Shown in pieces: positions 20,043-62,500 of a DNA stretch of 64,000 nucleotides. Source of the DNA: Blasia pusilla. Taxonomy: Eukaryota. The stretch lies in the NCBI GenBank assembly GCA_050084515.1, contig CM114271.1, positions 47,678,001-47,742,000 of the forward strand. Reading direction: 5' to 3'. The notes under the pieces were generated by a model. It ran no database searches. It saw only the letters and a program-made list of their open reading frames with translations, and was not told the origin of the DNA. The translations under genes were made by a program, and so were the position numbers. The stretch's first letter is position 1. The number at the start of each line of letters is the position of its first letter.

Positions 20043-23000
20043 CTACATCCAATTCACATGTGTCATCTTCAGAAAACTCATCGGTGGATAGATGAACAAC
20101 CGACACATTGTTGACACTTTTCTATGTGTTGTCACTAATTCCTCAACAGTCAACTCTATAGCGCCAATTGTGTTCACCAATGGCATCCTATGAGGCAATG
20201 TTTTAGAATCTTGATCAAGGCCAATAGAATGTCCCTTGTCAAGATTACCCCCATCGTAGATATCATAAATTACTCTGGGAGATCTAGCTTCTTTCCTCAA
20301 TACTACCTTCCATCCGCTCCCCTTGTTAGCATCTCCAAATATTACTTGCTCCACTTGAGATGGGAAAACAAAAGGTTGGTGATTCAAAGGTTCACAAGAT
20401 CTAAGGTTGACAAGTAAGAAGCCTTCACGGTCTTGCTTCATGGATGGCGTAGGTGACTCCCAATCTGCCCTAACCCATCTTCCTCTCATTAAGATGACAC
20501 GCTGGTCTACAATCCCATAATAAAGTGCAATAATATTGACAATAGCTCCTACATATGAATAAGCACTATTGTGGGAGTCATTCTTCTCATCCACAAATAT
20601 TGCTCCAATTCCACTATCATAAGTAGAGTATGCACTAGATCCACCCTCTCCCTCTATCCTAAAGTGGTTGCCATGAGCCTTCATAGACTTGTAAGAGAGT
20701 ACTTTTGATTGAGAAGGAATTGATAAGGCTAATGCCTCTTCATCCACCTTCCCGTTATTCTCCCTAGCATCTTGGAGGATAGCTGGTTGGATCCACTCTT
20801 TAAAAGGAATTGATGCCCTCTTTGAATCATATCTCTTGGCAGAAAAAACATTATGGGACCAGTGGACTAGGTGATCCGTTAGCTTTTCTGAAATAGGCAG
20901 GGTTCAGTGATGCTAAAAACTCACTCTACAAATTGAGAACACATGTAATTAAATAATACATGTGCCATGTAACCATAGACTCGGTATTGTGTAAAACATA
21001 GTGGTGCGCCAAGATCATCAGATCTCTTGAAAGTCGTACTTGCACTCTTGCACCTTCTAGCTCCTTGCTTGCCACTCCTTCTTCACCCTCATCCTAAATT
21101 CGGGTCCTTACACCCTCAAATCTCCTCATATACTCAGTCACAAATCCCAGAGCCTCGTCTTTAATATACCCCTCAGCCATGTAACCCTCGGGCCGAGCTT
21201 TTGATCTCACATATTTCTTCAAAAAACCCATGTATCTCTCCATGGGATACGTCCATCGGCAAGCTAAAGACCCACATAAGTCCAATTCTTCAATTACATG
21301 GATCAAAAGATGTGTCATCACATCAAAAAAGGAAGGTGGGAAATGCATCTCCAAGAGACATAAGGTTATCCCTGTTTCCTTGTGTAGTTGATCGTAGTAT
21401 GTACGATCATACACTTACAACATAGTAACCTGAAAATTTTACTCAAGCGCGTGATCGTTGAACGAACAGGAGCTTTCATTAGGCCACGAAGGGAAAAAGG
21501 AAGGATGTGGTGAATGAGCACATGATAATCATGTGACTTCATGTTACCTAGATTCTTTTTAACCACATGCTTTCTTAGCTCACCACTATATCCTATGGGC
21601 ACTTTCAAGGATTGAATCCTAGATAAGAATGCGGCCACCTTTTGAGGTGATAAAACATAATCACATTGAGGTTTCACTAGGTCTTGAGGTCTACTTGGAT
21701 GGGATTGTAATCACAAGTGAGCTCTTATTCCGGGAGCTTCCATATCTCTTCTAACCTTCACAGTATCCTTCATCCCTATCAAGGTCTTCACCAGATTCTT
21801 TGCAATATTCTTCTCCACGTGCATAAGATCTAGGGTATGTCGTATCAAAAGATGCTACCATCAAGTAAAGGAAATATATGTTCATCATAAATAAAAAAAT
21901 ACTTGCTCCAAAATATATCACAAGCATGAGTAAAATAAAATCACATTGGTGTGGATACTCTCCAATATGGCAAATCATACAATAGAGACCTTCTCTTCAC
22001 CCCTGTCCTTTTGTAGGGATCACTTGGACCATCCTCTCGACCTCCACCCCCATCATATTTTTTTTTTCCTTTGCCCATCTAAGAATCTCGTCTGCTGTAA
22101 TCCTTGGAGCTGCATCCCTAGACTCATCCCTTCCATTGAAGTGGGAACCATAGGCTTGTCCTCTCCATACATGATCATGGGAAAGGTGTCTATGATGACA
22201 ACCAAAAATAGGCTTCCCACATTGTTTGGAGAAATCCGAATCTACATAAGGACCACATATTATACACGCAAGTTTCCCACCATGGCTTTGCCTTGAGATT
22301 GTGCCATATGCTGGATAATCATTTATTGTCCACAAGATCATAGCTCTGAACAGAAAGCTTGAGGATCCATGTGGTCTACGTACATGATGGAATTATACCC
22401 CATTCCACAACTCATGTAATTCATCCTCCAAGGGGGCCAAGTAAGTGTTAATGTTCTCTCTATTGACATTCTCCTTACCGGGCATAATAAGAGCCAACAT
22501 CATAAATAACTTTTTGGTTTCAAGCCAAGGTGGCAAATTGTAGTTCACCAATAAGACCGGCGAGGTCGACCAAGAGCTTGCCTTGTCAAGATATGGATTC
22601 ACCCCATCAAGGACTAAACCAAACCTACAATTTCTACTCTCCACAAAAAAATCAAAGTACAAATGATCTATGTGATACCATGCCTTGCTATCCTCTGCAT
22701 GTCTAACCATACCATCCTTGCTCTTTTTTTCAGAAGCCCAATTCAACAACTTTGACAAAGCCTGACATCTATACATACGCTGCATCCTAGGGATTATAGG
22801 GAAATGTCTCAAGACCATTTGGTACTAAGGACCTCCCAACTTGCTTGAACCTAGAATTTCCACTCTTGGGACACTCATCATTATCAGCCAAATCCCCACA
22901 AAAAAGGACACAACCTTTAAGACATGCATGGATAGAGTTGTAACTCATTCCAAACTTGTTGATAAGTTTTTTGGCAGCATAGTATGACGGTGGGACATGA

Positions 23001-23742
23001 TTATCCGATGGGAGTGCCATCTTACCTAAAAGTTTCAAAATCTCATCGATTGCAATATTGGGCACTCCATGGGTAGCACCAACGTTGAAGTTAAGCATAA
23101 TAAAACCAAGTAAGGAAGTCTTAGGTCTTGGGAAGAGCGGCTTGCATGCTGCAGCAAGTTCATCAAAATTTGAGGGAATGTTTTGATCCTCGCCTTCATT
23201 GGGATGGTTTACATCCTCTCGCCACCTTCATTGATCGAGCCATCTTTGTCATAGAGCTGATCATATTGTCTAAATATGTCATTGAGCATCTGAGGGACAT
23301 CAATGTTGTCATCCAAGTTTGCATTGTTAATGTAAGGTAATTCCTGCACCGGCTTGGATTGCATGATAAGCTCACTCTCCCTTCTGTCATGGTTATCCTA
23401 ACTCATGAACCATTCCTCATCCGAGGAGTTCCACTCTTCCCTAGTTTTAGGGATGAAACAAAAATGAGATCGTCCATTTTTTCTCAAGTGTTCTTCTACC
23501 TTGCCAAATCCCAAGGTAGTCCCACCCTTGCACTCACTACAAGGACATCTGGCCCTCTTCCTTCCTAATGTGCGGGACCTAGCACATTCCCTTTGCCACA
23601 ACTTGTAGTCATGAGCTTGGATTCTATGGGGATCGCTCAAATCCAATCGGACATGAACAAACATTGGTGGTATCATAGCCCCTACGTACGTCAAGTTAAT
23701 AAGAACATAAGTAAATACTTGCATGAGGAAAGTGTTGGACAA
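20043..23742 (-). pseudogene. CACTA transposase (TnpD/Tnp2-type; Transposase_21, DUF4218- and DUF4216-like regions)
   Basis: 'RCPCSEC', 'YNSIHACLKGCVLF', 'LRHFPIIPRMQRMY', 'GLVLDGVNPY', 'YNLPPW', 'LWTINDYPAYG', 'MKSHDYHV', 'FPPSFFDVMTHL', 'WTYPMERYMG', 'QPFVFPSQVEQV'; frameshifts and stops. Confidence 0.95.
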
Positions 23743-24715
23743 TAATTATTCTCTACAATGAACTTTTCCGTGAATATAGACAAAAGAGGTTCTGTCAAGT
23801 AGGCCACAACTACCTTGAAATTAAAATGCAAACTTAGTTGAGACTTGAAAGTACCTTCTTAAATCAAAATGGACACTTGTGTTCTCCAAGCAGCTAACCC
23901 TTGCCTCCTCCCAATAAAACCTATGTCAAACCCAAGAGATGCTTTTAGGAGCTACCATCAACCGTCAAGAGGAAGAAATACTATATAATGTGCTTGAGTT
24001 CAGACCCTTCTGAACTCACACCGTTTTACATTTAATGTTCCTAACGTTAGTATCATTTACCAAACATTTTAGATGTACCATGCCTGCAGCAAGCTCACAT
24101 TGTGAATTTTAGCAATGTCTTCTTTTTAGCCACTTCAATTATTAGAATGAACATGGTTAGCATCCCCATTCAGAGAATTTACTTGGTATTTTTCCAAACT
24201 TGATTCCTGAAGTTCTCATATATTCCCTCTATTTTCTCACCTGTCCTATAAATTCTTACTGTAAGTGAGAGAGTGGAAACTTGGCCTTATTTTCATTTGA
24301 TACTCTTTGTTGCAAAATAATGAGTTGTAATCTTACTTAAGGCTGATATTTATTGTTTTTTAGTGACCATAAATTCATTGAGTAGAAAATCACACTTAAG
24401 TGTTGATGCTTTTATCATCTCCCTTGATCACTCAACACATTGGAGCTTGATTTCGTAGTAATATCTCATGTAGTTTGAAAGGCAAATCTTCTAGTAATGC
24501 AAATACTTTTACTTGAGCATGGCAAGAATTATGAGTGCTACCTACATAATAATAGTATCCATACAATTTAGGTGAGACCTTCCATCCCAAAAAAATATTT
24601 ACAATTATTATCCAATTGTTGCCGTAGGTTCCTTCCTATCTGTCAAAATTGCCACACCTTCTCCGTAATTGCCAAAACAAAGTTTCCTTAAGCCCTAACG
24701 TACCATGCAACCTTC

Positions 24716-30880: not shown

Positions 30881-31629
30881 CATACATTCAGAGGGTGAGT
30901 TGATCTTGGTGAATTTTTTATGTTGTGGATTGTGCTTAGAGTGTACTTGATACTGTTGAATTGTGAGTAGATTAGTAGGAGGGAGTAGGCTGGGGGAATG
31001 ATAGATTGGCAGATTGAGATTCTTGCTCAATTAGGGGTTGAATCCCCCTCTATCATAGTGTAAAGACAACATGTTGCATGTTAACTTAACTTGGTACTTT
31101 TATTTTCTTCCAAGGTCTTATTTATTTGAAGTGATTTCTTTACTTAAGGAATTTTAAGGATACCAAAAATGAAAAATGACTCCTTTATAGTACATAAGGA
31201 TGAGAATAAAAAAAAAGTTCACTTATAAGTTAGGGGGTCTAGACCTTGAAACGTCATAGGTGATGTAGATCCTTTAGTATGATACTATAGCAAAAACCGC
31301 GACATTCCACCAAAATTAGTTCAATCGATGCTCCCCCATAGTTGTTCTTTGTGGTTTCTAGTCTTGATTCTGAACTGTTATTGACAAATTTTGCATTCCC
31401 ATCCCAGGTGTTCTCGATAATGCTATGATGAGCTTCTGGCTTGAAACTTGGAATCTCAACTCTTAAGCCAAGTCTGGTGAGCACTGACATCATACTCTTC
31501 CTTTTCCTAACTTTCGAGAGATAAATTTGAAACCACTTCTCCCAACTTTGAGAGCTTATTTTGAAACCACTTCCATTGGGCACCGACTTGAAAATTAATC
31601 GGTCATGCTTATGTGAAAAACTAAGAGCG

Positions 31630-35700
<4,071 letters not shown>

Positions 35701-35745: not shown

Positions 35746-36572
35746 TATATTCCAGCTATAGAAGCTCCGTGTTGGATTCTCAACATCCACTTCTCTGAGC
35801 ATCATTAATCTAATGGGCCCCCTTGTATGAGGAGAAGCCTAGATTGATGGTTCCGACTTAGATGTCGAGGTAGTCATAGTAATTTGATGTAGGTGGTTTA
35901 TGGAGTAGCAAAAAATTTCTATTAATATCAATGAAGAAAAATATGTAAAAAACCCTAGTTTTCCGAGTAGTGAAATATTCAGGAGCCGCAACGGTAGCGC
36001 ATTCTCGTATGTCGAGTTATGTCCATGTTCAGGTTCCACCAAAGCTCTTCTATGAGCACACAGACGGACTGTGCTACTTTGTATCTCCAAGTTTTATAAA
36101 AGATTTCAATGATTTTGTCACTTTCTATTTTCTCACATGGTATCAGAGCAGTAGGTTTTCTAGTCTTTTATATTTGGCGATCTAGTGTGTTTGCACAAAA
36201 TCTTGAGAGATGGCTACTTCTTCATCAGTTTGTGCTCACCCTCCTCCGATAAGTGAAGGGAAGTTAGATGGGTCTAACTATACATTGTGGAAGTTAAAAA
36301 TGAGAATTGCCCTCGAATCATTTGAGATCTAGCAGACGACCACATAAGCCGATTCAAATCCACAAGCTACTTTGAGTTCTGCATGTTCATCTTCATCTAG
36401 TGATATCAATCCTGTTGTATTGTTGGCATGGAAATGCAGAAACGCTGATGCTCTATTTGCGATTGTCACGAATGTAACTGATTTTTTCATGGCTCTCATT
36501 CAACATACAACCATTTTTGCTAAGGCGTGGAATATTATGAAGAATCAGTATAAAATGAGGAATAAGACTCGG

Positions 36573-39103
36573 AATCCGGGTATCTCTAAACGTGGTGGTT
36601 GAGATATATACACCTCCTCTTTGAGACTCCTATTCAGAAAGGCAGACTTCACAACGTATTGGTATACAAGCCAATGTCTTATTCCTGCCACCGCTAGAAA
36701 AATTTGAATGGTTGTCATCCTTGTAGTAGGAGCAAAAGTCTTATAGTAATCAAAACCTTTGATTTGTAAAGATCCTTGTGCAACCAACCTGGCTTTGAAT
36801 TTATCCAATGTACCGTCTGACTTGTACTTTGTCTTGTACACCCACTTGGTGCGTATTATCTTCCTGTCCTTTGGCTTCTCAACCAAAGTCCAAGTTTCAT
36901 TTCTTTGAATAGCATCCATCTCCATCTACATGGCCTCTCTCCATTGAAGATGAGCAAGGGCCTCATCCAAGCATGATGGCTCTTCCACCTTCAAGACCTC
37001 TGTCATCAAGGCCATGTTGACGAGTTATGCGGAAGCTCTATTCTACTCCTCTAGTCTCTTGGATCTCCTTGGATGTGTAACAAGTTCATCAATTGTTGGT
37101 GGATCCTTACCATCTAAAAGTTACTTTATCCACTTAGGGTATGACAACCATAGTGGAAGAGCAGGTTGCTCTTTGTAATCATCACCAAATTCTTCTTCTT
37201 GATTATCTCGTATAAACATTGATGGTGTGTTGTGGTGGGTTATCTCTTCGTTTGATGATAATATAGACGGACCACTGATATCCACCACTTGACGAGGTTG
37301 TTCTTGGAACACCACATCACGACTCACAAGCATCTTTTTTGCCTCAAGACACCACAGGCGATAAGCTTTAGACTCATCACTGTATCCCATAAAGATGCAC
37401 TTCGTGCTCTTGGACTTCAGCTTGGTTCTGGATGCTTCAAGAACATGTTCAAAGCACTCACTATCAAATATCCTGAAATTTTGAAGTGATGGTATCTTAC
37501 CTAAGTAAGATTGATGAGAAGTCCTGACTTGCACTGACTTGGTAGCACTTCTATTTAGAATATAAACGGCAGTATTAACAACTTCAACCCAAAATCCTTC
37601 TGTCAAAACTTTTTCTTTCATCATACATCTTGCCATCTCCACCATTGTACAGTTTCGACACTCAACAACTCCATTTTGTTATGGTGTATATGCCATGGTT
37701 AATTGTCGCTTGACTCCATGCTCCTCCAAATATTTGTTGAATTCTGTTGATAAGAATTCTCCTCCTCGATCGGTACGAAGCTTTTATACCTTCTTTCCAA
37801 TCTCATTCTGAACCAGCTTGTGCCATACTTTAAATTTTCCAAAAGCACTTGCCTTATCACGAAGGAAATACACCCATTTCTTCCTACTATATTAACCTTC
37901 GACAACAAAAAGAAGTAGGAAGAACCACCTAATGCCTCTGTTCTCATTTTACCACATAGGTCAGCATGTATCACCTCTAGAGGAGCCTTTGCTCTATTGC
38001 TAGACTCTTGTGGAAATGGTTTTCGGTGTTGCCTGCCATCATACAAGCTTCATATGTATCCGACACTCCAAAAATTATTGGTAAATCAGCAACCATGCGA
38101 GATTTCTGCATTTGACTTAGTAAGGGAAAGCTTAGATGACCAAATCTTTCATGCCACAACTTACTGCTACTAAGATCTGTACCTACACTTTTCGTGAAAG
38201 CATACAACTCATAGATATTTCCACGTCGTATACCTTCGCCCACTTCTTTCCCATTGGCATCCTCAATGATTGCTCTAGTTTTCTTGAAACGAACTTCTAA
38301 GTCACGGTCATATAATGCTGCTACTGAAATCAAATTGCGCTTCAACTCTCGTACGTAAAGTACATCGTTAACTTCTTTTCATCTCCTTTTTGTGAGACTA
38401 AAGAAATTGTGCCTTTCCCTTCTACAAGGCACTTTGCATTAATCCCAACAGTAACAACGATGGGCTCTTGTAGAGGTTATAAGGAGCTATACCAATCCTT
38501 ATGATTGGTCATATGCCTAGATGCTCCACTATCGAGCATCCATGCATCTTCACTCTTTGACTTAGTGGAATATTCTCCATGTATGAAAAACTCTTCGATT
38601 GCTACCCAAGCATCTAACTCATGTTCTCATAGTTCTACAAAATTTCCAGACTCCTTCTTAGGTCTTAAACAACCGTTCTTCTCATCCTGACTCCTCTTTC
38701 TACAATCTTTGATAAGATGACATAGCTTACCACAATAAAGGATTTGAAGGCTTTCCTTGGAAATTTCTTCTTGATATTTGAACAGTAATCCTGATTTCTA
38801 TCTCTCTGTACGTTGGTAGTAAATGTTGCATCACTTCCCTCTCTTGCTTTGAAGTTCATTTCCTCTTCTACCAACATTGCACTAAATTGTTCAAAAGTAA
38901 TCAGTGTGGGTCTTACTTGAGTATTCAATTTAGTGACCAAACATTCATACCTTGGAGGCAAAATCCTTATGCACTGACGTGCCAAATCTTTGCTAGACTT
39001 TGAAATTCCTATGGACACCATCTGATCTTGAAGATTCTTGATCCTTGTCAAAAATTTCTCTACGCTTTCACCTTTTGAAAATTTCTCGGACGTAAGCTTA
39101 TTC
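36573..39103 (-). pseudogene. Inverted Copia segment: gag C-terminus, protease, GAG-pre-integrase, integrase and RT N-terminus
   Basis: 'WMLDSGASRHMT' region near 38510-38545; 'LWHERFGHLS'; 'LEVIHADLCG'; 'MVEMARCMM'; 'KWVYKTK...FKARLVAQG'; 'SAFLN..LKEEVYISQP'. All on the strand opposite to the LTRs and PBS. Confidence 0.93.
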
Positions 39104-39660
39104 ACTGTGGGAGTATTGAGTAGGTTCTCAACTAAGCCTCAAGAGAACCATTGGAAGGCAGGGATGCATATGTTGAAGTACATCAAAGGCACTATAGAGT
39201 ACGGTATCACCTATGGAGTAGGGACAGAAATTACAACCTTTTGTGACTCGGATTGGGCAGGAGATTCAGATTCTCGGAGATAAGTTTCGGGTTATTGCTT
39301 CTTGGTAGGATTAGGTGTGGTGTCATGGTTTAGCAAGAAGCAACCTAAAGGCGGCTTGTTATGCTTCTTGTGAAGCAATATGGTTGAGATGGATATTGGA
39401 GGACAAAGGAGAAGCACCAAAAAGTGCTATTGTAATGTGATGTGACAATTAGAGTTGCATTGCCATAGCACATAATCCTATGTTTCATGCTCGTACAAAG
39501 CACATAGAGATCCAATATCATTTTGTTCATGAGTTGATCGAGAGATAGGTTTTGAAGTTAGTCTATTATCAACAGAGGATAACTGTGCACATATCTTAAT
39601 GAAAGCTTTGAGCGGAGATCAGCTTCACCGACATCTGAAGGGTCTTGGCATCGGTCGAAG
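39101..39660 (+). pseudogene. Copia RT C-terminus and RNase H
   Basis: 'VGVLSRFSTKPQENHWKA', 'FCDSDWAGD', 'NPMFHARTKHIEIQYHF'. Confidence 0.92.
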
Positions 39661-40619
39661 ACAATAATCCACATAAGAGTGGATATTGAGGGGGATTTTG
39701 GATTCTCAACATCCACTTCTCTGAGCACCATTAATCTGATCGGCCCCCTTGTATAAGGAGAAGCCTAGATTGATGGTTCCGACTTTGACGTCGAAGGAAT
39801 CATAGTAATATGACGTGGGTGGTTTATCGAGTAGCCTAACTAGGATAATCTAACCCTATATTACAGCAAGATGCGGGGCATCCTGATGCAAAATTTTTCT
39901 ATTAATAGAAATGAAGAAAATTAGGTTAAGAACCCTAGTTTCTTGAGTAGTGAAATAGTCGGGAGCCATAGCGGTAGGGTATTCTCGTATGTCGAGTTCT
40001 CTCCATATTTAGGTTCCATCGAAGCTCTTCTGTGAGCGCACGTACATACTAGGTCACTTTGTATCTCCAAGTTTTGTAAAAGATTTCAATGATTTTGTCA
40101 CTTTATGTTTTCTCACAATCCGATGGTAAATTACTCGCCGGACTGCAACATCTCCTTGGACACGGCTTGCACCACTGCTCCACTTGATTTTCCACACTCG
40201 GGGAAGGCAAAAAGGGCCAACGGAGCTTGAGCACTTAATCTTCTTAGGCTTACCACATCCTTGGAAGGCGGAAATGGACCGCACAGCTCAAGTAGTCAAG
40301 CAATCAGGCGGCAATGGATTGTAAACTTCTGCTTCCTATCTTGCTTCCCTCTACCCTCTCTCTTCGTCTTGTTGCACCTTCGTCTCCGCCTTGCTCTCTT
40401 CACCTTCGTATTCTTGCTCACACGTCTCTTACGCCCTAGATCGCCTAACCCTCGTACTAGGTCCGGCCCGTCTCACTCATACTCCCTCGCTTATTTTCCC
40501 CCTAGTCGATAGCTAGACCCTTATGTGCTTGCGTGCCATGAGCACACCATGTCATATGCCACATAGGTTAATGAAATTTTGGAAGCCCCATTTTTTTCAT
40601 TTTTTTCCATTTAAGTTCC

Positions 40620-40934
40620 TTTGTACCTTATTTCTACTTAGTTTATGACTTCACATATTTAGTCATTTTTCATTCCTGACACAAGTGAGTCATATAAATT
40701 TTTAGTATGACTACACACAAGACCAATTAGTCACTAAGTCATTTCAAATATGACTATGCCATATCCTAAGATTTCTCTATGACTTAGTCATAATTTTATA
40801 TGACTACAACTTTACTATTATATGGGGTGATATGACTGCTATCTGACTAGCAGACATTCTAGTCATATGTTTGAGTCATGAAGAACCTCAGTCATTCTAG
40901 TACTAGTCATAAAAACCACTATTTTCTTCTAGTG
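40620..40934. repeat. Second CACTA-type terminus with subterminal repeats
   Basis: ATGACT/AGTCAT repeats ending in CTATTTTCTTCTAGTG (reverse complement CACTAGAAGAAAATAG), followed by ATT. Confidence 0.8.
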
Positions 40935-42279
40935 ATTGGAGACAGGTCAATGAGAAGTTAGTGAGTTTGGAACTTGGCAAGGAGGGGTGAGGAAGCTCAC
41001 ACAAAGCTTGGCTTGGTTTGGTTTAGGGTTGCGGGCTAGGGCCCGATGTTTTGTGTCGTGAGGTGTCAGTTTTTGTGGTGTCATTCTGTCTGGTGGAAAC
41101 GGGGGAAATTTTCATCCATCCAGAGAGGGAGAGGAGGAGTGGGATGTGCTCACGCGGACCCAACCGAGTGATAATTATGGCGGGAGGATAGGGTTGTAAA
41201 AAAACCAGCAGTAGCACTATTGAAATGTCACAACTCGATCAAGAAGGCAAGGAGCTACTCCATTATATCTTCGGGGTCACGGAAGTGGAAATGGTATTGC
41301 AGCGGAGGAGAGAGTAAGAGAGGAGAGGAAGAGAGGAGAGTCTCTCTTAAAAAAAAGGGCCAAATCCGCCTCCTCTCTTCAAAACTTTTTGACATATTTG
41401 AAATTTTTGTTTGCTTTCAAATTCAGGAAATCTTTAGAAGAGAGTATTTAGTGGTCCACATTTGGCCCTAAAAAAACCTCCTCTTTCTGGGGCGAGAAAA
41501 AAGGAGACATCATAAGACCACCCTAAACATTTTTCCATCACTCTCCATGTGAGCCTAAGTTTCTTAACATTCCTGTCTCGGTCAACAAAAAGCAAAGGTG
41601 CCCTTGGTATTTCTGTTGGAGGACCACCGGATGGGAACCTCTCTTTTGCAGGATTGTTTCTGCATCATGGCCTCCCAAAATTGCCCCATAACCAACTTTC
41701 TGTCGGTTATGAATGGTGTCTGCTCAAGACAAACTTTCTGAAATGTGAAAAAATCAGATCCTAAGGCTCAGAAACCGAGAAGCTGCACCCCTCCCAACCC
41801 GTAAGAAAGCTCACCATAAGAAAACGAAAGATTTTTAGAAGTGATTTTCTTCCACCCTGCACCCACGAGGATCTAACGGGTTGGGAATCCGAAATGGCAA
41901 TCCGACAGGTAGTAGGAATCTTGCACATCTTAGACAAAAAAATAAGCCTACAACTGGTTCGACGAATGAAGGGGAACGAGCCAAAAGTCAAGAAGCCCGC
42001 CACAATGCGTCAGAAGTTGGTCTCACCGAGATAGAGTCCGATCACTCAAGCAGTCAACCTGTCGGAATCCGAGAGGTTGCCTGGAAATGGTTAAAAATTT
42101 GCAGGAATACAAAAAGCAAAAAGTCGGAATCATACGGGTTGCAGAATTGTAATTCTGAGTAGCTAAAAGAACACAATCCACAAGTCCAAAAATATATTCG
42201 AAAACTTTTACAAACACCATTATGGGTTGAAAAAAATCTCGTCCTTTATTACCTCGAAGGAAACCTGAAATGTACATTT

Positions 42280-45200
42280 CACCTAGTCTATGATTTCTTC
42301 AGCCTCGTCATCTACAAATTTACTCCTAACTCTCTCGGTGATGAGTACCAAAGGAATGTCTGGGATTCAAGTGGCTCCTTTGGCCGATTGTAGACGGGGA
42401 TCGAAAATGTTGGCAAATTCGAGAGCCTTGGCCCCCTAGGTACATCATAACGGTCCCATGTAACCTGTCTCGAGTCCCACCGCCTTCCTCGGCAGTATAC
42501 CTTGTACGCTCGCAATGTGACACCCATCCAAGTATCAATATCGCTCCGCCCCGGTAATACCACTATGGCAACCGCCTTGACGGTAGAAGGAATCAACACG
42601 TCGAGAGAAGAAAAGAAGCCTCACGCCTTTACGAGTTGAGGGAAGGTGCCAAGGAAGAAGCCCGCCAGATGCCTCATCAAAAGGGTTGATCAGGCAACTG
42701 TCGGAATCAGACAGTTGCTTGGAGGTGGTAAAAGGGTCGATGGTCAAAAGCGAAAAGTTGCAAGGAGGAGAAATCCGACGGGTTGCGATGGTCATAAAGT
42801 GAAAATTGCAAGCGGGAGAAATCCACGGGTTGCAAAGTAGAAGACCGTGGAGTACATATACGATCACATTGAAAAGACAAAATGATCAGCAAACATTTAC
42901 AAGCACCACCATCGATCGAAAAAATCTTCGCTTTATATCATCCGAGAAAAGCTCTTGAATCAGACATTTGATCTATTCTATGAAATCTTTTGCCAAATTA
43001 TCAAAAACTCCCTACTCCAAACGCTGGAGTCAAGTGGTCGTTGAGTTCTTTGAACTAACTCGTCATCGTCCAAGAGCTCTTGCAAAATCACTTTCGGCCT
43101 TGCCCTCCGATTTTGGGAATCGTTGGAAGTGACGATGGAGTCACTACCAAGGGTGGCTCTGGAATCGGAGCTCTCGGCCGGTGGAGAGTTGTACGCCCAA
43201 CGAGCCTTTTGTATTCGCCTTTGCCTCTTTGCAAAGGTCAAGCGATTCTTGCCTTCCCTCGAGGCGAGAGAATGTTCCTGCCACTCTGCTGGCGCCTCGA
43301 TACTAAGCCCCTGAAAGGCCCACTAAGTCGAACACCAAGTCACGGCCTTGAGCAGAGCTCGATGAGCGTTTGCATCGTGGTGGCGACTTTTCCCTTCCTC
43401 CCGAAGGGGAAGTGCTTGTCTTGCATGTAAATCCTCGGGGGAATTGTACAAACTATCTAAGCCGCACCCATCGAGCATGGATCCACAGGATCTGGATCTT
43501 GAACACCTGGAAATTGTGCTCAGCCGAATGAAGCGAGAGCGAGGGGAGTGGTCCATCAGTAAATCAACACAAAACAATGTCGAAACTAAAGAAGTCGCCT
43601 TTGAGAAGATTTTCAATAAGCGACTTTGGATCAACTTTGTCGGAGTCCGGCGGGTTGTTTTGTCTCGGACCAACCCGTCGGAACCCGCGGGTTGATTTCG
43701 GCAAAAAAAGCAGTTTGAGGCAAGCAACCCGTCGGACTCGAGCGGGTTGCTTTGGGGCAAAATCTTCTAAACCTGCGATCACTTTCGAGCAACTCGTGAG
43801 TCCGGCGAGTTGCATTCTTAAAAACAACCTCACAAGGCGGCCTATCGAGCAACCCGTCGGACTCCGACGGTTTGCTTTGGGCCAAAAACTAGTTAAATCT
43901 ATGTTCCATCAAACAAGTAAATTCGAGTCCGAGGAGTGTCAATCTTAAAAAAACATCCGGAAAACCGTGCGGTCTAGCAACCGTCGAGTCCGGCGAAGTT
44001 GCTTCTCGCTAAACAAACCTAACCCATTCATCAATCGAGCAACTCGCCGAGTCCGACGAGTTGCAAAAGTATTAAAGATACTTACGTGTTCATGGCATGC
44101 ATTGCCATCTCCACCGTCGCCATGTGATGAGGGTATGGGTGAAGGACCACTGCCTTCACGCAAAAATGTGCCTCCAATGAGTTGGGGCGCTCCTCCATAA
44201 ACTTGGTCCACGCCATGAACCTGTGATTTCCATCCCACATGAAGAAATGCAGATTCCTCATCCGGCTGAATTCCGTGCCCTCAACTTGCCTTCGAAGTCC
44301 TGGTCTCGCATCCTCCGAATGTGTCGAGATTTTCCAAGTCCTCCTCGGTAACGAGCTTGGGTTCCATGCTCGTCGTAAAGGCTGAACATAGAAGGAGGAA
44401 AATGTCACGTGAGGATCTTTGTTGCCGCCGATTGTTTTAGCTTTTGCGATGTCCTCGTCTTGATCAGATTTCGGGACGTATTCCATTGTCCTTAATCGGC
44501 AGAGTGGAATCTCGGGCGTTGTGGCCCTCCATAAGTGCCATCCGCTTTACCACTGTCGTAACCAGGGACAAGAGGAATAAGCTACACCGAAATCCCAATG
44601 AATTGCAATTCACATAATTAAAAACCTAACCTCTCTTACCCGCTTTGAAAATGGAGTCGGTTTCTTGACCGGCTAACTTGTCCGAGATGGGAGGGCAAAT
44701 CGACCAGGAACTCGTCGATCCGATAGAGGTCGATGTCCTCCACGGGCTTGGAGTCGAGAATGACCGCTCTCGGCTTCTTCGGCCATGTCCACCATCTCCA
44801 CTGTTGGCGGTCCTCATGACCTCGTCGTCATCGATTTGAATCGGTGTTGTTTCCACTATGTTGATTGTGTCCCCGGACTTCGTGGGGACATTTCCGCATC
44901 TCAACACTTGCGGTTGGGCGGGCGGGCTATCGTCAATGGCTATCGCTTTTTCCGCCTCGCTTTAGCCAATTCCGCCCTCCTCGCGCCCAGACGCTTCTTT
45001 TTCTCTCTTTTCGTTCGGGCGATCCTTTTCTTCAAGGCTGCGGCGACTTGGCCTCTTCGTTCTGTTTATCTAGCGCCGCTTGAACACGTCTCGAGCACTT
45101 GGTTGTGCATCTCGCTTCCCTTTCCGCTCCTCGATTTCTGCTGCCGCCTAATTTCATTCGCGAGCTTAACGAGACGCAGAGTCCTAATGGACTTGGGAGT

Positions 45201-45450
45201 GAAGCTCCGGACTTGTTGGCTTGTGTTTTTTTCCTCGTCATTTTTGCCGAAATGCCTCCACCTATGTCCACGAATCCCTTGATGATCGCCTTGCTGATGC
45301 CGAGATGGGAGCTCGTCTTGCCTTGATGGTTAACTCGAATCGTCTCGATATCGCCGGTCGAACCGTCTTGCTCGTTCCCTCCCCTATCGACTCGCGATGT
45401 GTCGCCGCGTGAAATGCCCCCTTCAGTATGTGATCAATCGCTGCTGGCGG
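42280..45450 (-). pseudogene. Spliced cargo gene with ParB/Sulfiredoxin-like motif; frameshifted as given
   Basis: 'EIPLCRLRTMEYV...DEDIAK' then 'SSFYVQP' then 'FFMWDGNHRFMAW' (DGNHR at 44220-44234, fits GxxRxxA). GTAAG donor at 44085; candidate acceptors at 43507 and 42698; charged low-complexity N-terminus. Confidence 0.6.
43632..44064. repeat. Array of ~8 palindromic ~26-bp repeats, period ~60 bp, in a predicted intron
   Basis: Units at 43632, 43670, 43724, 43789, 43849, ~43915, 43977, 44039; for example GCAACCCGTCGGACTCCGACGGTTTGC. Confidence 0.85.
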
Positions 45451-45608
45451 GAGAGTGAGGAGTGAGAATGAAGATCACAAAATGAGAAACCGGAAATGAG
45501 CGATTTCTGCCCTATTTATACTTTTCTAGCCGTTGGCTGACCGTTGGTTGGGTCCGTCGTCCTTCGACGGCGACGTGCGGATGTTACGGAAGTCCGGCGT
45601 GAAAAATC

Positions 45609-46320
45609 GCAACCCGTCGAGTCCGACAGTTGCGCGGCTCTACCATCTTGTGTCCGTCGCCACGGCGCTGAAAGCAACCCGTCGAGAGACCGGCAGGTTG
45701 AGCGCTCTGTCGTCTTCGAAAAGAACGCGAGGTTCCCGCGCAACCCGCCGGAGACCGACATGTTGCGCGCCTCCGCCATCCTGGTACGTCAAGACGCGTC
45801 GCGGCAACCCGTCGGAGACCGACGGGTTGAGCGCACTCCATAAATCTTCGAAAACAACGCGAGGTACGCGCAACCCGTCGGAGCCCGACATGTTGCGCGC
45901 CTCCGCGTGTTTAGGATGGGAATCGGGCGTTTCTTGGGCAATCCGTCGGAGACCGTTGGTTGCACGCCCTCATCAAGGGTTAGGAACCAGGGCTTCCGTG
46001 CAAGTTTTGAGTCCGGCCGGCTGCACCACAAGGCGAGGCCCTTGCGCAACCCGTTGGGGCGGGTTGCACGCCCGCCTCTTTGGGCTAAAGGCCACGCACC
46101 CGCCAAACTCGTCGAGAAAGAGCGGTTTACGCCTCCGGCATCTTCGGGCAAGAAGGATCGGTATTTGAGAAACTTCGTTGAGAGCGACGGGTTGCTCGCT
46201 TTGACAATGTTTAGCGAAGCGTGCAACCCGTTCGATGCCGACCGGTTTGTTGAGCCGGTTAGCCGGGTAATTTCGAGTTACCAGGACTCGAGCGGGTTCC
46301 AAGTGTGATCGCAACCCTCA
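45609..46320. repeat. Array of ~11 palindromic repeats, period ~65 bp, between the divergent genes
   Basis: Units at 45609, 45674, 45740, 45804, 45870, 45938, 46000, 46046, ~46102, ~46169, 46223. Confidence 0.88.
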
Positions 46321-46522
46321 CGCTTCCCAAATCCGGTAACATATTGCAACATGAATTGAATGTATTCTGGTGGATCCATTGTGTCGACAATGTCACCCAC
46401 CGAATTCATCTTGTCAGTAAAAATCTGTCAGGAGTATCTGTTTCCTATTCACTATAAATTAAATATTCTCATTCTCATTCTCATTCTCATTCTCAGTCTC
46501 CTCTTGTAGGAATCTTCTTGGA

Positions 46523-49500
46523 ATGGATAATTATGTTAAGCTCACTTGTGGCAGTCATCTGGCGGCCCTTCCTCAATCGGAAATCATTCGACCCCAAGCT
46601 CGTGAGTCTTTCATAGCAGTGGATGAAAATTTTCTGTCTATTCGATTTCTTCTTCAAATTGGAACCATCTATGTATCCAAAGATGTTAGGGTGGACGGTA
46701 CGGAAGACATAATAGGTGAGATGGTCTAGCCTGTGACCTCAGACCATAAAGTATGGAATCTCCTACCTCTACCAAATGGTCAATACAGAGTTTACGGCCT
46801 GCCCCTTGAATTCGTCTGTTTCCCAAGTAGACGGTCTAGAATTTCCTAGTGCTCCGAGCTCTACGTTTGCAACTCCAAGCTCTGCAGATCCGGCTTCGAC
46901 TCCAACTTCGCACGCTCGTGACAATGTTGTTTTTCCAAAAGAGATTCCGGATGTTATCAACCTCAGTGGATCTGTCGAGCACCAATCGGGCCCTCTGTCC
47001 ACCTACTCGTTCCTCTTACGAGTATCAGGAAATAGTTTGCTTTCGTCTCGCCCTTGAAAATGTTCAAGCACATTCTTGTCGATTTGCCGCCCACGCACGA
47101 TGCTAATTGCATTTTTGAGTTGCCTCCACTTCGCTCTGCTCAAAAGAAGGATGGAGGGCGCTGAAGGGTATGGACGAAAGTCGATTGTCATCGATGGTGC
47201 AGGCTTCAACGGACCGGTGCTTCCATCCGAGATGGTCTTGGATTGTCTCCGCCGCCAATGCGTGGGAGCCTTGGAGTGTAGAAGTCCAGCATGCCCGTAT
47301 CTAGAGCGCAACGGGCGAGTCAATACGTCGCAATTCCCCCCCAAGAATGCAGAAACTCCATACGAGGTGGGTGCCACAATACCGCTGGGAGGCCATCGAT
47401 GTCCTCATTGTCAAGCACCGCCCATGCGTTGGAGCGTGTCTGCATACATATTTTCATTGTCCATGACATGGGCTCCACGCCGAGTATACAAGGTGGCGAT
47501 TCATGTTGGCTCCCATACTCATCCTGTGACTGATGCAATTCAAAGACACATCAAGGAGGATGTGGCGAAGAAAGTAGCCGAGGTCTTCAGAACTCTCCGG
47601 GTTCAAAGCCGGTGATCAAGCTCACAACGGCATCACAAATTTGTGAACAATTGCTTGGAATCCTGGGGAGGCGAGATCACGGCGGTTGAGGAGAAACAAC
47701 TGGGAAAATCTCGCATTTCTCGCTGATCCTGAATGCTTCCGGAATTTGCTGCGTCGGTCGAGTTCGGATGGAAAGACGGCGAAATGGATGCCATTGCGTA
47801 ATCAAGGCCAACTCCGATTTCCATTCATTCAGAGATGGCAGTTCATGGGCCAAGGAGGCGAGGATCAGGGCCTATGTCTTCAAAATGTCAACCACAGTCC
47901 GTCGAGTGGCCTCGATCTTATAGATCGAATGAGGGAAGGGGAAGATCTTTACGGAGCTGGTCGGCTTTGATATTTGCTCTGAGTCTTTGAACGGATGGTT
48001 GGCGATGGGTGCTCACGTTTATGACCATGTGGAGAAGGGACTCACAACTATATTTATGTGTGAAGTAAAGCGAGCGAAGATGTTGGCGGTTTGAAGATGT
48101 CTTTGGTTACTCTTATTGGAGGTGGTGAAGGAAAACAAAAGGCCACCTCAGGAAATTTATGGGTTCATGATGGACAATGCACAACTGGGTGGATTGCTAT
48201 CCGGGAAGTGTTCGGGGTGGAGAGGTTCAACGGAGAGGGAAAGGTCGGATGCTTTCCATTGGCTTGATCTGTGACCCGGTACACCAAATCTTGCATCAAG
48301 GAGAATAAGAGGACAGAGCATGTCACTCTACTCCAACGCTGCAAGGCAACAAAACTTGAAGCGAGGCCATGGGCGCCGGGAAGAACTTCATGGGTGGTGG
48401 AGGAAGCATGCGATTGAGGGAAGTACAAAGAGTCGTGCTCTTGGTTGAGTTGGTGGATCGTATGAGACAATGGGGAAACTTCATCGGCGGCGGTGAGTTC
48501 ACTATTTTGTCTTGTCAAGCTCACGCGAGAATTGTTTGTAAAGTTGTAGCTCAGGGTGAGAAGCGTGGGAATTATATGGATTTCAAACCCAAGAAACCAA
48601 GCAAGTCGTCGGATCGACGGGTTGCCGAGTGTGCAACCCGGAAACGGAAACCGGCCGGGTTGCATCCAGATGTTTGGTATCGTCCTGAGTGTGCAACCCG
48701 TCGAGACCCGACGGGTCACGGAGTCGTTCATGGGATGCCTCGGCCTTGCAACCCGTCAGGTTCCGACGGGTTGCAGTAGGTGGGTTTAAGGTTACAACAC
48801 GTCGGGACCCGACGGGTCGCAGAGTCGTTCATGGGATGCCTCGGGCCTGCAACCCGCCTGGTTCCGACAGGTTGCTTATTTCTTTGACTCCTGGGTTATT
48901 TTCGTTCCCTTCTAACATTGGTCGTTTGCGAGGATTGAACGTTCATGAAAATGCCCTCTCGCCCCAACACAAGTGGAGCAGAAAGTGTTCATTCCTCTTG
49001 AGTCGTCACAAACATGCCAACAATTTCATTTGTGGAGGCATGCCAACAAGACCAGGCAAGAGCAATGCTACGATCTGCGGCATCCCATATCTTCCTCACA
49101 AAAGGCATAACAAAAGAAAGGGGCCGTCGATCTCGAGCTCTATGTCGTATGTGAGATCTCGGTGATGAAAATTGTATGTCAAAGCCTTCAACCGGTGCGT
49201 AGCTGGAACTCCACTCGATCAAGACGCGTACATAGGTGGGGATATTCGTGGGCGGGTTTCAAGACGCCCCATACTGAGATGGTGGTAGAGCGGTCCAAAC
49301 GAGACTCGTGGAGACCAGATAAGTATCTTGACTTCAGGCAGGTGAAGAGGCAGCATCGAGGAACAAATCCGGTGATTGATTTGGATGAGGAAATTACACC
49401 GCCCAGGTATTCGGGGACCCCGGACCCGTCCCAAATCCGTGATGGAGTTACTTCTCCAAAATCGTGAATGTTTTATTTCAAAAGCCCTCCGTTCTTCGGA

Positions 49501-50411
49501 AGTTCGCAACATCCTGCCACAGGGTGGTTCAACAATATGGGATTCCGGTAATGGAGGTGGATTGCAACCTAAAAAGGTGGCATATATCTCGGAGCAACCC
49601 ATGACGTGGACCCACCTGCAAGGCAGGATCTGATGGCATTAGGAGAGCATGCGGCACTTTCCTAAATAAGAACTCTACAAGGACTGGACGACCATTGCCT
49701 GGGTTTTGGGGACTCAAAACCTTTGATCGTTTCACAAGGAACGGGGATCAATTGAAGTACTTCTTCTGCCCAAATGAATCTTGCGCTTTCCGGAAGTCTT
49801 ATCCGGCTGCCATTGGAGCTCTCGGGAATACCCCCACGATTTGACCCATCGCCGCAGGCACGAACTGCATTCAAGACGAAGTGGACAATCTTACAAGTGC
49901 CGGTTTTAGACTCGTAGACGGGGGAAGTTCGGAGCATGTTCGCATTATAGAGACCTTCGCATTTCGTATTCAACCCAAGATTGATGTCAACATGTACCCG
50001 GAGAAGGTGGATGATCTCAATCCATTATTTCTGTTTGAGTCTAGAAATGGGATGAAGAGAAATAGAATGTGTAGGCCAACGGTGGAGAGAGCAAAACGAA
50101 TTGCATCTGCTCGGGAGGCAAAAATGGAGATCATCGCTTCGAAAGATGTCGTGAGTGGCAATGGAATAGGAAGGATGTATTGGGTCAGGAACAACACTGT
50201 AAATTCAAGTGTCACAGGGGTGTATGTGGTGCACATCTCTTGCTTTCCCACATGTTCATATGATGACTTTGTCCAAAGAGAGACAAGTGGAAAAAGGTAT
50301 TTCCCTTGTAAGCACATGTACTATGTGTTCTTTGGTAGTTTTAAGAGAGTCGGAGGTAGGAGTAGGAATCCACCAACCACCCTGTCCCTCAAAGAAGTTC
50401 AAGTATTTTAA
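46523..50411 (+). pseudogene. MULE-type transposase with GCM/WRKY-like N-terminal zinc domain and C-terminal SWIM finger; frameshifted as given
   Basis: 'RQCVGALECRSPAC...RCPHC...IHVGSHTHP' (47240-47525); 'GFMMDNAQLGWIAIREVFG' (~48160-48220); 'CFHW' (~48250); 'PNTSGAESVH' (~48965-48990); SWIM-like 'PTCSYDDF...PCKHMYYV' (50245-50325). Confidence 0.75.
48601..48875. repeat. Six palindromic repeats in the predicted transposase intron
   Basis: Units at 48601, 48633, 48693, 48748 (GCAACCCGTCAGGTTCCGACGGGTTGC), 48794, 48849; includes a 101-bp-period duplication. Confidence 0.88.
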
Positions 50412-51238
50412 ACAAACCACTTTGAGGATGCAAAATGAGGTTTTAGATTGTACTTTTATTTTTTTCTCAACCTTCCTTTGTGAGCTTGAACTCTATTAAG
50501 CCCGGGGCAAATGATAGATTTTTCCAGACCTTGGATGGAAAAAGTGATTGTTCCACACTTATGATTCCACATATTTTTCAGTTTTGTAAATTTTGTGCAA
50601 TTTGCAACTCGTCGGACTCACAGGGGTTGCCAAAATATGGAAGAGGAAAAAAAAACTGTGGGATTGTTTAATAAATGAACAAAAAAGTGCAAAAAAATTC
50701 ACACAAAAAGTTTCCTCTCTTCAACCCAACGGAAACTCTCTTCAAAAAAAAGTATCTATTTCGGTTGAAGGTAGTTTCCTCTCTCCTCTCTCCTCTCTTC
50801 CTCTCTTCCTCTCCTCTTACCGCACCTCCAGAAGTCGCCAGAGTACCTTCCACCATGGTAAAGGGAGCCACCGCATTCTCTCCATAATCTTTGTTATGGA
50901 ACTCATTCTGGCGTCTGTAGGCTTTTTTTTTTTTGCTATGGAAGATCCTTAACCTGTGCTTTCCCCGCCTCATTTTGTTTGGCTACCAATAGAGTTGGCT
51001 TTTTAGATGAAATCGATGGCATTTTAGGGCTGTTTGTGTCCAATTGCACAATTTCTTCAATCCCATCCTTGAGTTTCTTGTGCGTGTAGGGGAGGAGACG
51101 TTGGAAGCGGCAAGAGACACGGTTCACTTCGGAGATCATTGTATTGAGAGCATAGTGCTTTCCACCTCAATAAATTGAACCACCGTAGTGTCTATGTAAC
51201 CTATTCCTCGTCGTGGAACTCAATCGGTTGCGCTTAGT

Positions 51239-51242
<4 letters not shown>

Positions 51243-51310
<68 letters not shown>
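51243..51310. repeat. (CT)n microsatellite
   Basis: Directly visible. Confidence 0.97.
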
Positions 51311-53682: not shown

Positions 53683-53863
<181 letters not shown>

Positions 53864-59556: not shown

Positions 59557-62500
59557 ATGCGCACTGTGAGTTTGCTGTTTCGTCGCGGCTGGCAGCTGTC
59601 GTCGTCGATCCGACGGTTTGGGGCTCCTGCTCAGGGCATTATCAATGGGGGAGGATTACTGTCTCGAAGATTACATTCCTCTAAAGCCGGCGGAGAGTCC
59701 TCTAGATATCGCAGTTTCGTCACCAGAGCCTTACCGATTTGGGAGCGCAACGAATCTTACAGAGGGATTCTTCTTGCAGTCACTGCCAGGTTTTTCACTT
59801 TCTCTAATTCATCTCGCAAGTAGAGAATCGCTCGTCATATTGTTCATCTACGGCATTCAATGTTTTTCATTCTCTCATTTGTGCATAGTTTTCACGGTTG
59901 CTGAGGGGCTTCATTTAAGTAGTATTCGAGACATACGTGGTATCGCGCGGAATGCTCAGACTTTCTCGGCGGACTCACTTTTGAAGCTTTAATACTGAAT
60001 TTGAAGTATTCTTCATCATCTCTACTTAATTGATTCTGGGACATTGTCCAAAGCGGTCGATTTACTCTGTTTTATCAAACATTTTGACCTCCGTACGTTA
60101 AACGAACGGTCCTAAATGTCGGAAAACCTATCAGAGTTCAAGCTAGCTTTGCCAAGGGTTCGGCTTTCACAAACAACTTCGTTGTAAGACATTCATTCTA
60201 CCTCGATTATTGTGACTTGAATTCGTACTGATTGGCAGTCTTACAGACACCAATGAGACTCCTCAGCAAGTCCATGAGAATTGAAATTGCAGGTTTAACT
60301 GCACGACATGATGTACATCACGCTGCAGGGGGAAAGGGTGAGGTGATTGTGATATTGGAAAGGTTTTGCTCCAATAATTCAAATTTATTTTGATCCTTGC
60401 GAATCTTTCGTTTAGCGGTTCGTAGTGTGTAAAATGAAGCGCACTACGCACTTAGCAAAGTGTGACCTGGCCCGGAGAAAAACCCCCTCGGACTTTTACA
60501 TGGGATTTCATACAGATCGCATCTATTTACACTCTCTGTTCTTACAATTATTGAGAATTCGACTTAGGTTTAAAGGTTTCCTGATCTCAGAAATATCACT
60601 AAATCGGGCCTCACGAGATGATCACCATGAATACCTGTGTTAATAATGCGTGCCATATTAGCAAGCTGCAAGCGAGCCGTACCAAAGAACACGTTCTAAG
60701 GAACAAGCTTTAGCTCCAGATTGTTTGTCAGTTGCAATACTTCGGTTTTGCCACTGCTTGTTAATAGGCCTATGGTTTCAGTTGTTCGTGGATATGGTGC
60801 GGAAGAAACTTTCCTATCGCGGCTTGCAGACATGATAAGGAGAACGGCTGTGGTCAAATATCTAACAGTGTAAAGCGTCATTTGATTTGGCAGTGGATGC
60901 TTGGGTGGACTGCTTTTGATGGTTGCCGATGGAGGTGGCAATCCTTCGCACGCCCTTGCCGCCGCAGATACAACTCCCAAGAAGAAGCTAGTAGTGCTCG
61001 GGACAGGATGGGCTGGTATGAGCTTTTTGAAGGAGCTCAACGTAGACCTGTACGATGTACACATCATTTCACCCCGAAACTACTTCGTGTTTACCCCACT
61101 GCTACCGAGCGTTACAAATGGGACTGTGGAGGCGCGCAGCATAGCAGAGCCGGTTCGCCGAATGTTCAGAAATGTAATCCATCTTCATTACTGTAACATG
61201 AAGAGGTCTCACGTGATAATTATCCTGTTATTAGCCTTTTTCGTTTTCGTCCAATTAGACTAAATTTCCGCCATAATTTCCCCTTTGAGCGTCACAACTG
61301 TAGTTGATTTGTGACGTACCTCTTTTCATGATTATTCTACGCATTTCGTGGCAGCAAAGTTTCAGTGAAAGATCATTAGAATTTTTTTCGAGGTGTTTGC
61401 GGAAGGGAACGTATACACTTATTTACAGGTGATTCCTGTAATATTGTCTCGAACTGATCAAGCCTGTTAAAAAACATTGTGTGTTGAGACATGCCTAAAC
61501 ACAGAAACAAAAACAGGTGAAACTTTACGAATCGGAGTGCGTGGGAATTGATGCCGAAAACAAGAAAATTTTTTGTCGAGATACATCTGATGTCACTATA
61601 AAGGGAAAGGAGGACTTCGCTGTTGACTACGACTATTTGGTAATTGCAGTTGGGGCCGTCTCCAATACTTTTGGTACTTCCGGAGTCAATGATTACTGCC
61701 ACTTTCTCAAGGTGCGTTGATACATAGAAGATTGAAAAGTAATAGTAGAAACTCTTTGTTACTTTGAAGGTTCATGCTGATGGTTTTCCTCTCGAGAAAC
61801 CTTCAGAATTTCGATCCTTCGCTCCTTTTCAATCTTTCTAATTTAGAAACGAAAATTTTGCCTATTGGCTCCACTTACTTAAGATGGTTTTGGGTTCAGG
61901 AATTAGAGGATGCCGTGAAAATCCGGGAAAATGTCGTAGATTGCTTCGAGACGGCAAGCCTCCCTCACATTACAGACGAGGACAGAAAGCGCATGCTCAG
62001 TTTCGTAATCGTGGGAGGCGGTCCAACTGGGGTTGAATTCGCCGCAGAACTTTATGATCTTGTACACGAGGATTTATCAACACTGTACCCACAGCTCAAA
62101 CCTCACGTTAGTGTTACGCTGATCCAATCAGGAGACCACATTTTGAATTCGTAAGCGCTAACCTCAAACAAAAAGGAAATCGCTTTCTGTCCAATGAAGT
62201 CGATCTTTTTGTCGTTTTTTTTGGGAGTTCTATCAGAGTGTGTCGTATCAAATAGCATATTGCAGTGGTCTCCTTGGTTCGAAAATTCAGGGGGTGTGGA
62301 GTTTAGTGGTTTATGGTCCCGGCCAATGATTAAAATAATGGCGAATTGGTTTGTACAAGATTGGCATAGGAGAAGGACTTGAGAATAGTTTGGTGTGCCC
62401 AAACTGTGTGATCATATGCGAAGTAGAAAAGTTACCTACTCATCTTTAGGAGATTTTCCTTCGTCGAGTAGGAGAATAGGACTACGTGAAGTCTAGCCTT

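Follow-up and report, generated by a model that had tools for sequence, protein, structure and literature searches.

In a 64-kb stretch of the genome of Blasia pusilla (GCA_050084515.1, CM114271.1, 47,678,001-47,742,000, + strand; hereafter the window, numbered from its first letter), a DNA transposon of 9,332 bp carries 28 copies of a 27-bp palindrome, GCAACCCGTCGG-N3-CCGACGGGTTGC, which consists of two inverted 12-bp half-sites. The copies form five arrays and one single copy spread over 42054-50630, and the arrays resemble CpG islands, unconserved spacers included. We tentatively read the arrays as dimer-binding sites for a protein encoded by the element, most likely one with an anti-silencing role such as VANC has in the VANDAL elements of Arabidopsis. 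The sites themselves are plain to see; protein binding, the identity of the binder and the effect of binding we infer from one dead copy of the element.

The full pattern with at most 3 mismatches is matched nine times in the window, as compared to 0.00 expected matches in 100 shuffles. Half-sites with at most 2 mismatches occur 18 times on the + strand and 19 times on the - strand, and 36 of these 37 fall within 42054-50604, the stray one being at 59610. Composite scoring (two arms, loop of 0-7 nt) yields 23 matches, 22 of them at 42054-50630 and a weak one at 59591; the 22, together with six degenerate copies picked by eye, make up the working catalogue. A position weight matrix built from 40 half-sites places 38 of the 40 window half-sites scoring at least 13 bits inside 41790-50630, block shuffles giving a mean of 1.9 and a maximum of 6. 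The sole strong half-sites outside the element lie at 59591-59621 and 35151 (15.0 and 14.9 bits); the former has a poor partner arm and both are probably chance. No palindrome array and no further copy was found elsewhere in the 64 kb. An earlier note on this DNA had described about 30 copies in a series of clusters confined to a Mutator-like element (MULE) and absent from the rest of the window. Number, clusters and restriction to the element are all borne out.

Array A (42054-42142), near the left end of the element and downstream of a putative - strand gene, has two palindromes 62 bp apart, starting at 42054 and 42116, with degenerate half-site remnants beside it at 41794-41910. Array B (42694-42833) has three copies, two of which form a 48-bp tandem duplicate with a degenerate left arm. 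Seven copies make up array C (43631-44064), spaced 39-65 bp apart except for one gap of 128 bp. The largest, array D (45609-46249, GC 0.60), contains nine copies and fills the space between two divergent candidate TATA boxes. Array E (48601-48875), with six copies, lies in a putative intron of a transposase-like gene, and the single palindrome (50604-50630) stands 83 bp inside the right end. Two-unit higher-order repeats were recognised by Tandem Repeats Finder and self-BLAST in C (125 bp), D (130 bp) and E (101 bp). Start-to-start spacing within arrays is 32-68 bp, mostly 54-68 bp, so that the period of 60-66 bp given earlier was roughly right.

Each of the 12 positions of the half-site holds 0.93-1.56 bits of information. 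The outer GCAAC is the best-kept part, and all good copies share GTCGG-N3-CCGAC as their inner part. Between the arms there are 3 nt in 13 of the 28 copies and 1-7 nt in the others; this centre is array-specific (AAT in A and B, ACT or AGT in C, AGA in D, GAC or GTT in E) and otherwise free. Even information content and inverted pairs of half-sites are as predicted for a dimer contacting two half-sites.

Palindromes are better conserved than the spacers between them, as the earlier note had held. Palindrome identity is 0.69-0.80 within and between arrays, and spacers of different arrays share 0.15-0.50, which is the random level (0.36 for random pairs), in a comparison over the catalogue that is partly biased by the choice of copies. 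In a motif-independent alignment of the tandem duplicates, 169 of 185 palindrome columns are identical (91%) as compared to 159 of 205 spacer columns (78%; Fisher p=2.6e-4), and indels are concentrated in the spacers. These data bear on the possibility that the arrays are neutral minisatellites, in which a palindromic seed favouring slippage or hairpins expanded in tolerant non-coding DNA and was spread by ectopic conversion, with no function at all. The tandem duplications in B, C, D and E are recent and agree with such a history, as do the missing arm covariation (see below) and the fact that a dead copy is under no present selection; moreover, tandem repeats are common in the non-coding parts of DNA transposons. 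Yet one expansion cannot yield five arrays with unrelated spacers and a common 27-bp unit, the spacers have diverged more than the palindromes within duplicates, and information is spread evenly over the 12 bp of each arm. We regard neutral expansion as unlikely. A half-site that always comes as an inverted pair and recurs in all five arrays, despite their unrelated spacers, gives the arrays the look of protein-binding sites and not of a plain minisatellite. To this extent the binding-site reading of the earlier note stands.

The two arms of a palindrome do not covary. Copies with symmetric C>T changes in both arms, at 43789 and 44039, had been taken to suggest selection for symmetry; these copies are real, but over the 28-copy catalogue there are 8 symmetric cells versus 72 one-arm changes, and arms of the same copy match at 7.14 of 10 positions versus 6.99 of 10 for arms of different copies (permutation p=0.23). 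Arms that do not covary, while each is held to the consensus, are better explained by a symmetric dimer reading double-stranded DNA than by a folded strand. This behaviour also speaks against hairpin RNAs processed from introns, which the earlier note had offered as one explanation. Folded as single strands, the best copies reach -10 to -14 kcal/mol, which would favour hairpins, but many copies are decayed and fold weakly (-2.5 to -3.9 kcal/mol). The stems of 7-12 bp are too short for Dicer substrates, no compensatory signal is seen, and Rfam has no family at gathering score, sR7 appearing only below threshold (29.2 bits versus a gathering score of 37). Intron hairpins are thus disfavoured.

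The first explanation in the earlier note was that a ParB-like protein of the element binds the palindromes as parS-like sites. This protein was sought on the - strand, where a putative decayed gene extends over ~42290-45480 in frames of 102-154 residues; it has no detectable relatives, and its exons are not definable. A candidate TATA box, TATAAATA, can be read at 45513-45520. The open reading frame (ORF) of 154 residues at 44082-44546, containing FMWDGNHRFMAW, is the piece that had been called ParB-like. It ends in a GTAAGT donor-like site, and array C starts 18 bp downstream on the - strand; TATA box and donor-like site would fit a - strand gene whose intron holds array C. The ParB-like label is not supported. 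Pfam gives nothing for this ORF up to E 10, two word-based homology searches give nothing, and comparison with the PDB gives chance matches only, the best being an irrelevant Old Yellow Enzyme (E 0.66); the single-sequence AlphaFold2 fold has a pLDDT of 35 and is unusable. In favour of the label there are FMWDGNHRFMAW itself and two weak leads from the ESM Atlas, a rank-3 cluster in which 31% of members carry DUF3723 and a rank-16 cluster in which 11% carry PF02195 (ParB_N). A literature search found no paper linking DUF3723 with ParB. Bacterial ParB-parS systems do have palindromic sites clustered near the gene of the cognate protein, and the sites here lie near the gene of a putative one. 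The parS site, however, is 16 bp long, whereas the sites here are 27 bp long, about 28 in number and part of a eukaryotic transposon with no detectable ParB domain. For parS-like sites or intron hairpins, taken together, the probability is in our view very slight.

The palindromes sit in a genuine DNA transposon, which has a 10-bp target-site duplication (TSD), terminal inverted repeats (TIRs) and a multi-copy family of transposase-like proteins. When 40200-41900 was searched against 50420-51300 for a TSD of 8-11 bp directly abutting a perfect TIR of at least 8 bp, a single solution was obtained. The left TSD, CCTCTCTTCA (41372-41381), abuts the left TIR, AAACTTTTTG (41382-41391); the right TIR, CAAAAAGTTT (50704-50713), is followed by a direct copy of the TSD, CCTCTCTTCA (50714-50723). 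The element thus extends over 41382-50713, and all catalogued palindromes fall within it. Block shuffling at two block sizes never reproduced this geometry of TSD and TIRs (0 of 500), and among 609 control region pairs it was seen twice. The perfect TIR is only 10 bp long and is followed by a loosely similar T-rich stretch; no long TIR was found in local alignment of the terminal 400 bp (score 14.5 versus a null of 12.5 +/- 1.8). A GA-rich inverted match between 41198-41357 and 50756-50928 (score 25.5, null maximum 22.5) was considered as a long TIR and rejected, being low-complexity and outside the TSD-defined ends. The insertion site is GA/CT-rich low-complexity DNA, with flanks (41298-41381 and 50714-50830) that are alike in inverted orientation. 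Long (TC)n tracts are also present at 51243-51310 and 53683-53861.

The earlier assignment to the MULEs is plausible. PMC6446971 gives a TSD range of 8-11 bp for MULEs, in which the 10-bp TSD of the element falls, and describes their TIRs as typically long, with non-TIR and short-TIR families existing as well. Besides TSD length, the architecture of the encoded protein speaks for the assignment, with a zinc finger at the N-terminus, a SWIM domain at the C-terminus and an [ST]..AES.H motif in between. Support from Pfam is missing: its MULE domain (PF10551) was not found in the window ORFs, in six read-through frames or in 32 relatives, the core in the window being frameshifted and the gene models of the relatives having no core or a truncated one. 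We therefore call the element MULE-like and not a proven MULE. Self-BLAST shows no second copy of the element in the window.

The transposase-like gene lies on the + strand (46523-50411) and is decayed. A candidate TATA box, TATAAAT, can be read at 46453-46459, 64 bp upstream of the ATG at 46523. The 188-residue frame at 49845-50411 matches 50 cluster representatives at E<=1e-3 (best 5e-25). Among ten relatives looked up, six are hypothetical proteins of Riccia sorocarpa with the UniRef name 'SWIM-type domain-containing protein' and four are unnamed. In Pfam scans of 32 relatives, SWIM (PF04434) was detected in five at E<=1e-3 and a transposase domain in none.

The tblastn segments are colinear with the relatives. 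First comes the N-terminal region with its C-x4-C...HxH finger (47054-47585), in which 47054-47423 matches relative P0007 (E 2e-10) and 47478-47585 matches P0031 (E 2e-6, against a 1.9-kb sub-database); the N-terminal finger is conserved with both. It is followed by core remnants (~47900-48456), with a weak match of 48352-48456 to P0031 (E 0.15), by the putative intron with array E, by a segment reading SGAESVH (48963-49124; P0006 at E 3e-4, P0031 at E 0.02), by a linker and finally by the C-terminal, SWIM-bearing domain (49479-50408), which has many matches, down to E 8e-38. SGAESVH is colinear with [ST]N..AES.H of the relatives, a motif which, as a lead and not as a test, we take to resemble the catalytic-glutamate motif of MULE/IS256 transposases. 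For the C-terminal domain of relative P0012, an AlphaFold model with pLDDT 85 had no Foldseek match in the PDB at E<=1e-3, and VIA-align wide found only weak matches to SWIM proteins, ZSWIM8 (Z 3.6, best) and Shu2 (Z 2.8). The N-terminal ORF at 47058-47615 had no match in the homology search and no usable match in the ESM Atlas, and read-through frames of the core had chance matches only in NCBIfam.

Between the segments at 48352-48456 and 48963-49124, P0031 has ~23 residues, as compared to 507 bp in the window. Because ~440 bp of extra DNA, containing array E, thus lies between colinear homology segments, we read array E as intronic. The predicted proteins of the relatives P0006, P0014, P0018 and P0027 start exactly at the [ST]N..AES.H segment, which suggests an intron at the position of array E in their genomes, perhaps also with arrays. 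None of the 28 palindromes overlaps the four homology segments (47054-47585, 48352-48456, 48963-49124 and 49479-50408). The earlier claim that the palindromes are confined to non-coding DNA therefore holds for the homology-supported segments of the + strand gene and cannot be extended to the - strand gene with its undefinable exons. We call this copy of the element dead because of two in-frame stops (49602-49604 and 49842-49844), additional stops in the segments at 48.4 and 48.9 kb, apparent frameshifts in the transposase-like core and a SWIM domain (C-x3-C-S-Y...C-K-H) with one cysteine replaced by tyrosine.

The conserved finger makes the transposase itself a candidate binder, and the palindromes could accordingly serve transposition, as sites at which the N-terminal zinc finger of the + strand product takes part, for instance, in synapsis or transpososome assembly, much as En/Spm TnpA or Ac transposase bind subterminal repeats. 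WRKY-GCM1-type fingers are described in PMC1702500 as DNA-binding domains in two classes of MULE transposases, which lends this idea some weight, and the positions of the single palindrome, 83 bp from the right end, and of array A, 0.4-0.8 kb from the left end, would suit it. The other positions do not. Sites for end recognition are expected at the ends and not in introns or a central promoter, but 22 of the 28 copies belong to arrays C, D and E, 1.8-4.9 kb inside; a single copy lies within 400 bp of an element end, and none within 400 bp of the left one. Nor is the 10-bp TIR like the half-site. A role in transposition itself is improbable in our estimate.

The arrays differ from their surroundings also in base composition. 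The observed/expected (o/e) ratio of CpG is 1.16 in the palindromes and 1.25 in the array spacers (862 nt). The remainder of the element has 0.90, homology-supported coding sequence 0.72 and the window outside the element 0.60; of random draws from the remainder of the element, only 0.15% attain 1.25. TpG+CpA, conversely, is scarcest in the array spacers (o/e 0.81), with 1.07 for the remainder of the element and 1.15 beyond its ends. Such a signature would be expected if the arrays had long been little methylated in the germline. That variants of the palindrome are mainly products of CpG deamination was considered and rejected, CpG transitions accounting for only 8 of 38 substitutions. CpG o/e is likewise raised, to 1.14, over 44065-45608, the 5' half of the putative - strand gene, the remaining element body having 0.75-0.92; around the divergent promoter, CpG richness thus extends beyond array D.

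GC- and CpG-rich arrays might also be CpG-island promoters or enhancers of the two divergent genes, with the palindromes as sites for host transcription factors. CCGAC is the core of the dehydration-responsive element/C-repeat (DRE/CRT) bound by DREB-type AP2 factors, and each palindrome has two inverted CCGAC cores; array D, moreover, occupies the region between the divergent TATA boxes. The conserved sequence goes far beyond a core of 5-6 bp, however: all 12 positions of the half-site are kept, the outer GCAAC best of all, and throughout the 64 kb the exact long motif stays within this single element. We consider host factors a very unlikely explanation.

The closest known systems are VANDAL21 (Hiun) and VANDAL6 of Arabidopsis, in which CG methylation is lost locally where VANC binds its own motif (Hosaka et al. 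2017, PMC5735166). The family-specific motif of these elements is found as tandem repeats in introns, intergenic and terminal non-coding DNA (PMC5735166). The target regions of VANC are prime targets of RNA-directed DNA methylation and diverge fast, according to Sasaki et al. 2023 (PMC10398659). In both systems we deal with a multi-gene Mutator-type element with weak or short TIRs, and here too a family-specific motif is repeated in tandem within introns, at the promoters between the genes and in terminal non-coding DNA. The CpG-island signature of the arrays would be the counterpart of the local loss of CG methylation caused by VANC, for which CpG o/e is only an indirect proxy. There are differences as well. 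The site here is a 27-bp palindrome, implying a dimer, whereas VANC motifs are asymmetric 8-9-mers (YAGTATTAY, AGTTGTCC); the frames on the - strand match no Pfam family, and no VANC-type protein is recognisable; and the transposase relatives are from a liverwort and not from Brassicaceae.

Two classical plant transposons offer a further comparison. TnpA of En/Spm recognises a 12-bp motif, including inverted dimers, in subterminal repeats, and demethylation there is TnpA-dependent; subterminal repeats of Ac are bound by its transposase. An element-encoded protein with a motif of ~12 bp, repeated in the non-coding DNA of the element and partly in inverted pairs, is what these systems and our reading of the B. 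pusilla element have in common, TnpA being in addition tied to loss of methylation. Their repeats, however, lie within a few hundred bp of the ends, whereas here most are in introns and the central divergent promoter, and concentration at both subterminal regions is not seen.

Taken together, our preferred reading, binding by an element-encoded dimer, would work as follows. A sequence-specific protein of the transposon family, which may be encoded by the putative - strand gene or may be the transposase with its N-terminal zinc finger, would bind the palindromes as a dimer, each site presenting two inverted copies of the 12-bp half-site GCAACCCGTCGG ~3 bp apart. The sites would have been multiplied by tandem duplication in each non-coding compartment, that is, both subterminal regions, the divergent promoter region and the introns. 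Bound protein may then keep the regulatory DNA of the element free of methylation, and copies bearing the motif would stay expressible; the dead copy in the window would merely carry the sites. A more specific version can be proposed, in which a Mutator-type family outside the seed plants independently evolved VANC-like self-protection, with a - strand protein of an undescribed family, possibly of ParB/Srx-like fold, binding the 27-bp palindromes as a dimer and keeping copies unmethylated in trans, even dead ones. So much detail at once we think quite unlikely to be right.

Several observations weigh against binding by an element-encoded dimer. Only one copy is at hand and it is dead; the conservation of the palindromes compares paralogous repeats within this copy, and gene conversion or the choice of copies could contribute to it. 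The avoidance of exons is statistically weak: chance alone would keep five clusters clear of the 1.7 kb of proven coding sequence in about one third of cases, as estimated from lengths. High CpG could reflect young arrays, a motif with four CpGs per copy or GC-rich duplication units. The - strand frames may not make up a gene at all, since frames of 123-172 residues are present on the + strand of the same region as compared to 102-154 residues on the - strand, and neither candidate binder is in a DNA-binding family recognised by Pfam.

We also looked for the palindrome and the protein family beyond the window. A metagenome collection with almost no plant DNA gave six single copies of the palindrome, on contigs of GC 0.56-0.62, without arrays and without protein or DNA similarity to the element; a collection of viral contigs, likewise with almost no plant DNA, gave 0 matches. 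In prokaryote genomes, 34 pattern matches to the SWIM family included no relative. Three loci on viral contigs, with 23-31% identity to the SWIM family and 0-2 half-sites each, were judged unrelated. In the literature searched, the motif strings occur only in unrelated papers (primers and the like), and there is no report of palindromic arrays in transposons, nor of VANC-like systems in bryophytes or outside Brassicaceae.

Sequence-specific anti-silencing by transposon-encoded proteins is known, in the same literature, only from VANDAL elements of Arabidopsis and close relatives. If the arrays do serve this purpose, this way of evading silencing would be more ancient, or would have arisen more often, than has been assumed. 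The 27-bp site and the two candidate proteins would then make up a testable pair, with a possible use in methylome-editing tools, and would open a route to the co-evolution of transposons and RNA-directed DNA methylation in early-diverging land plants. Should the arrays be neutral, they would provide a useful negative control for motif-array scans of transposons.

The window as a whole is plant DNA with many transposons. CACTA-type remains lie on the - strand at 20046-23745, where consecutive open frames match Transposase_21 (E 9e-32 and 2e-17), Transpos_assoc and DUF4216. A copia-type long terminal repeat retrotransposon with RVT_2, SH3_retrovirus, gag_pre-integrs and Retrotran_gag_2 occupies 35772-40117 on the - strand; its direct repeats (35772-36137 and 39698-40117) are 84-91% alike, and it ends ~1.2 kb to the left of the palindrome-bearing element. 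A dense array of 8-10-bp units at 31577-31950, with at least 32 overlapping 105-nt registers, produces spurious beta-barrel matches in Pfam in three frames. Open frames on the + strand at 60768-62151, with matches to Pyr_redox_2 and Pyr_redox (E 3e-5 to 3e-6), are probably exons of an ordinary host gene for a flavoprotein oxidoreductase.

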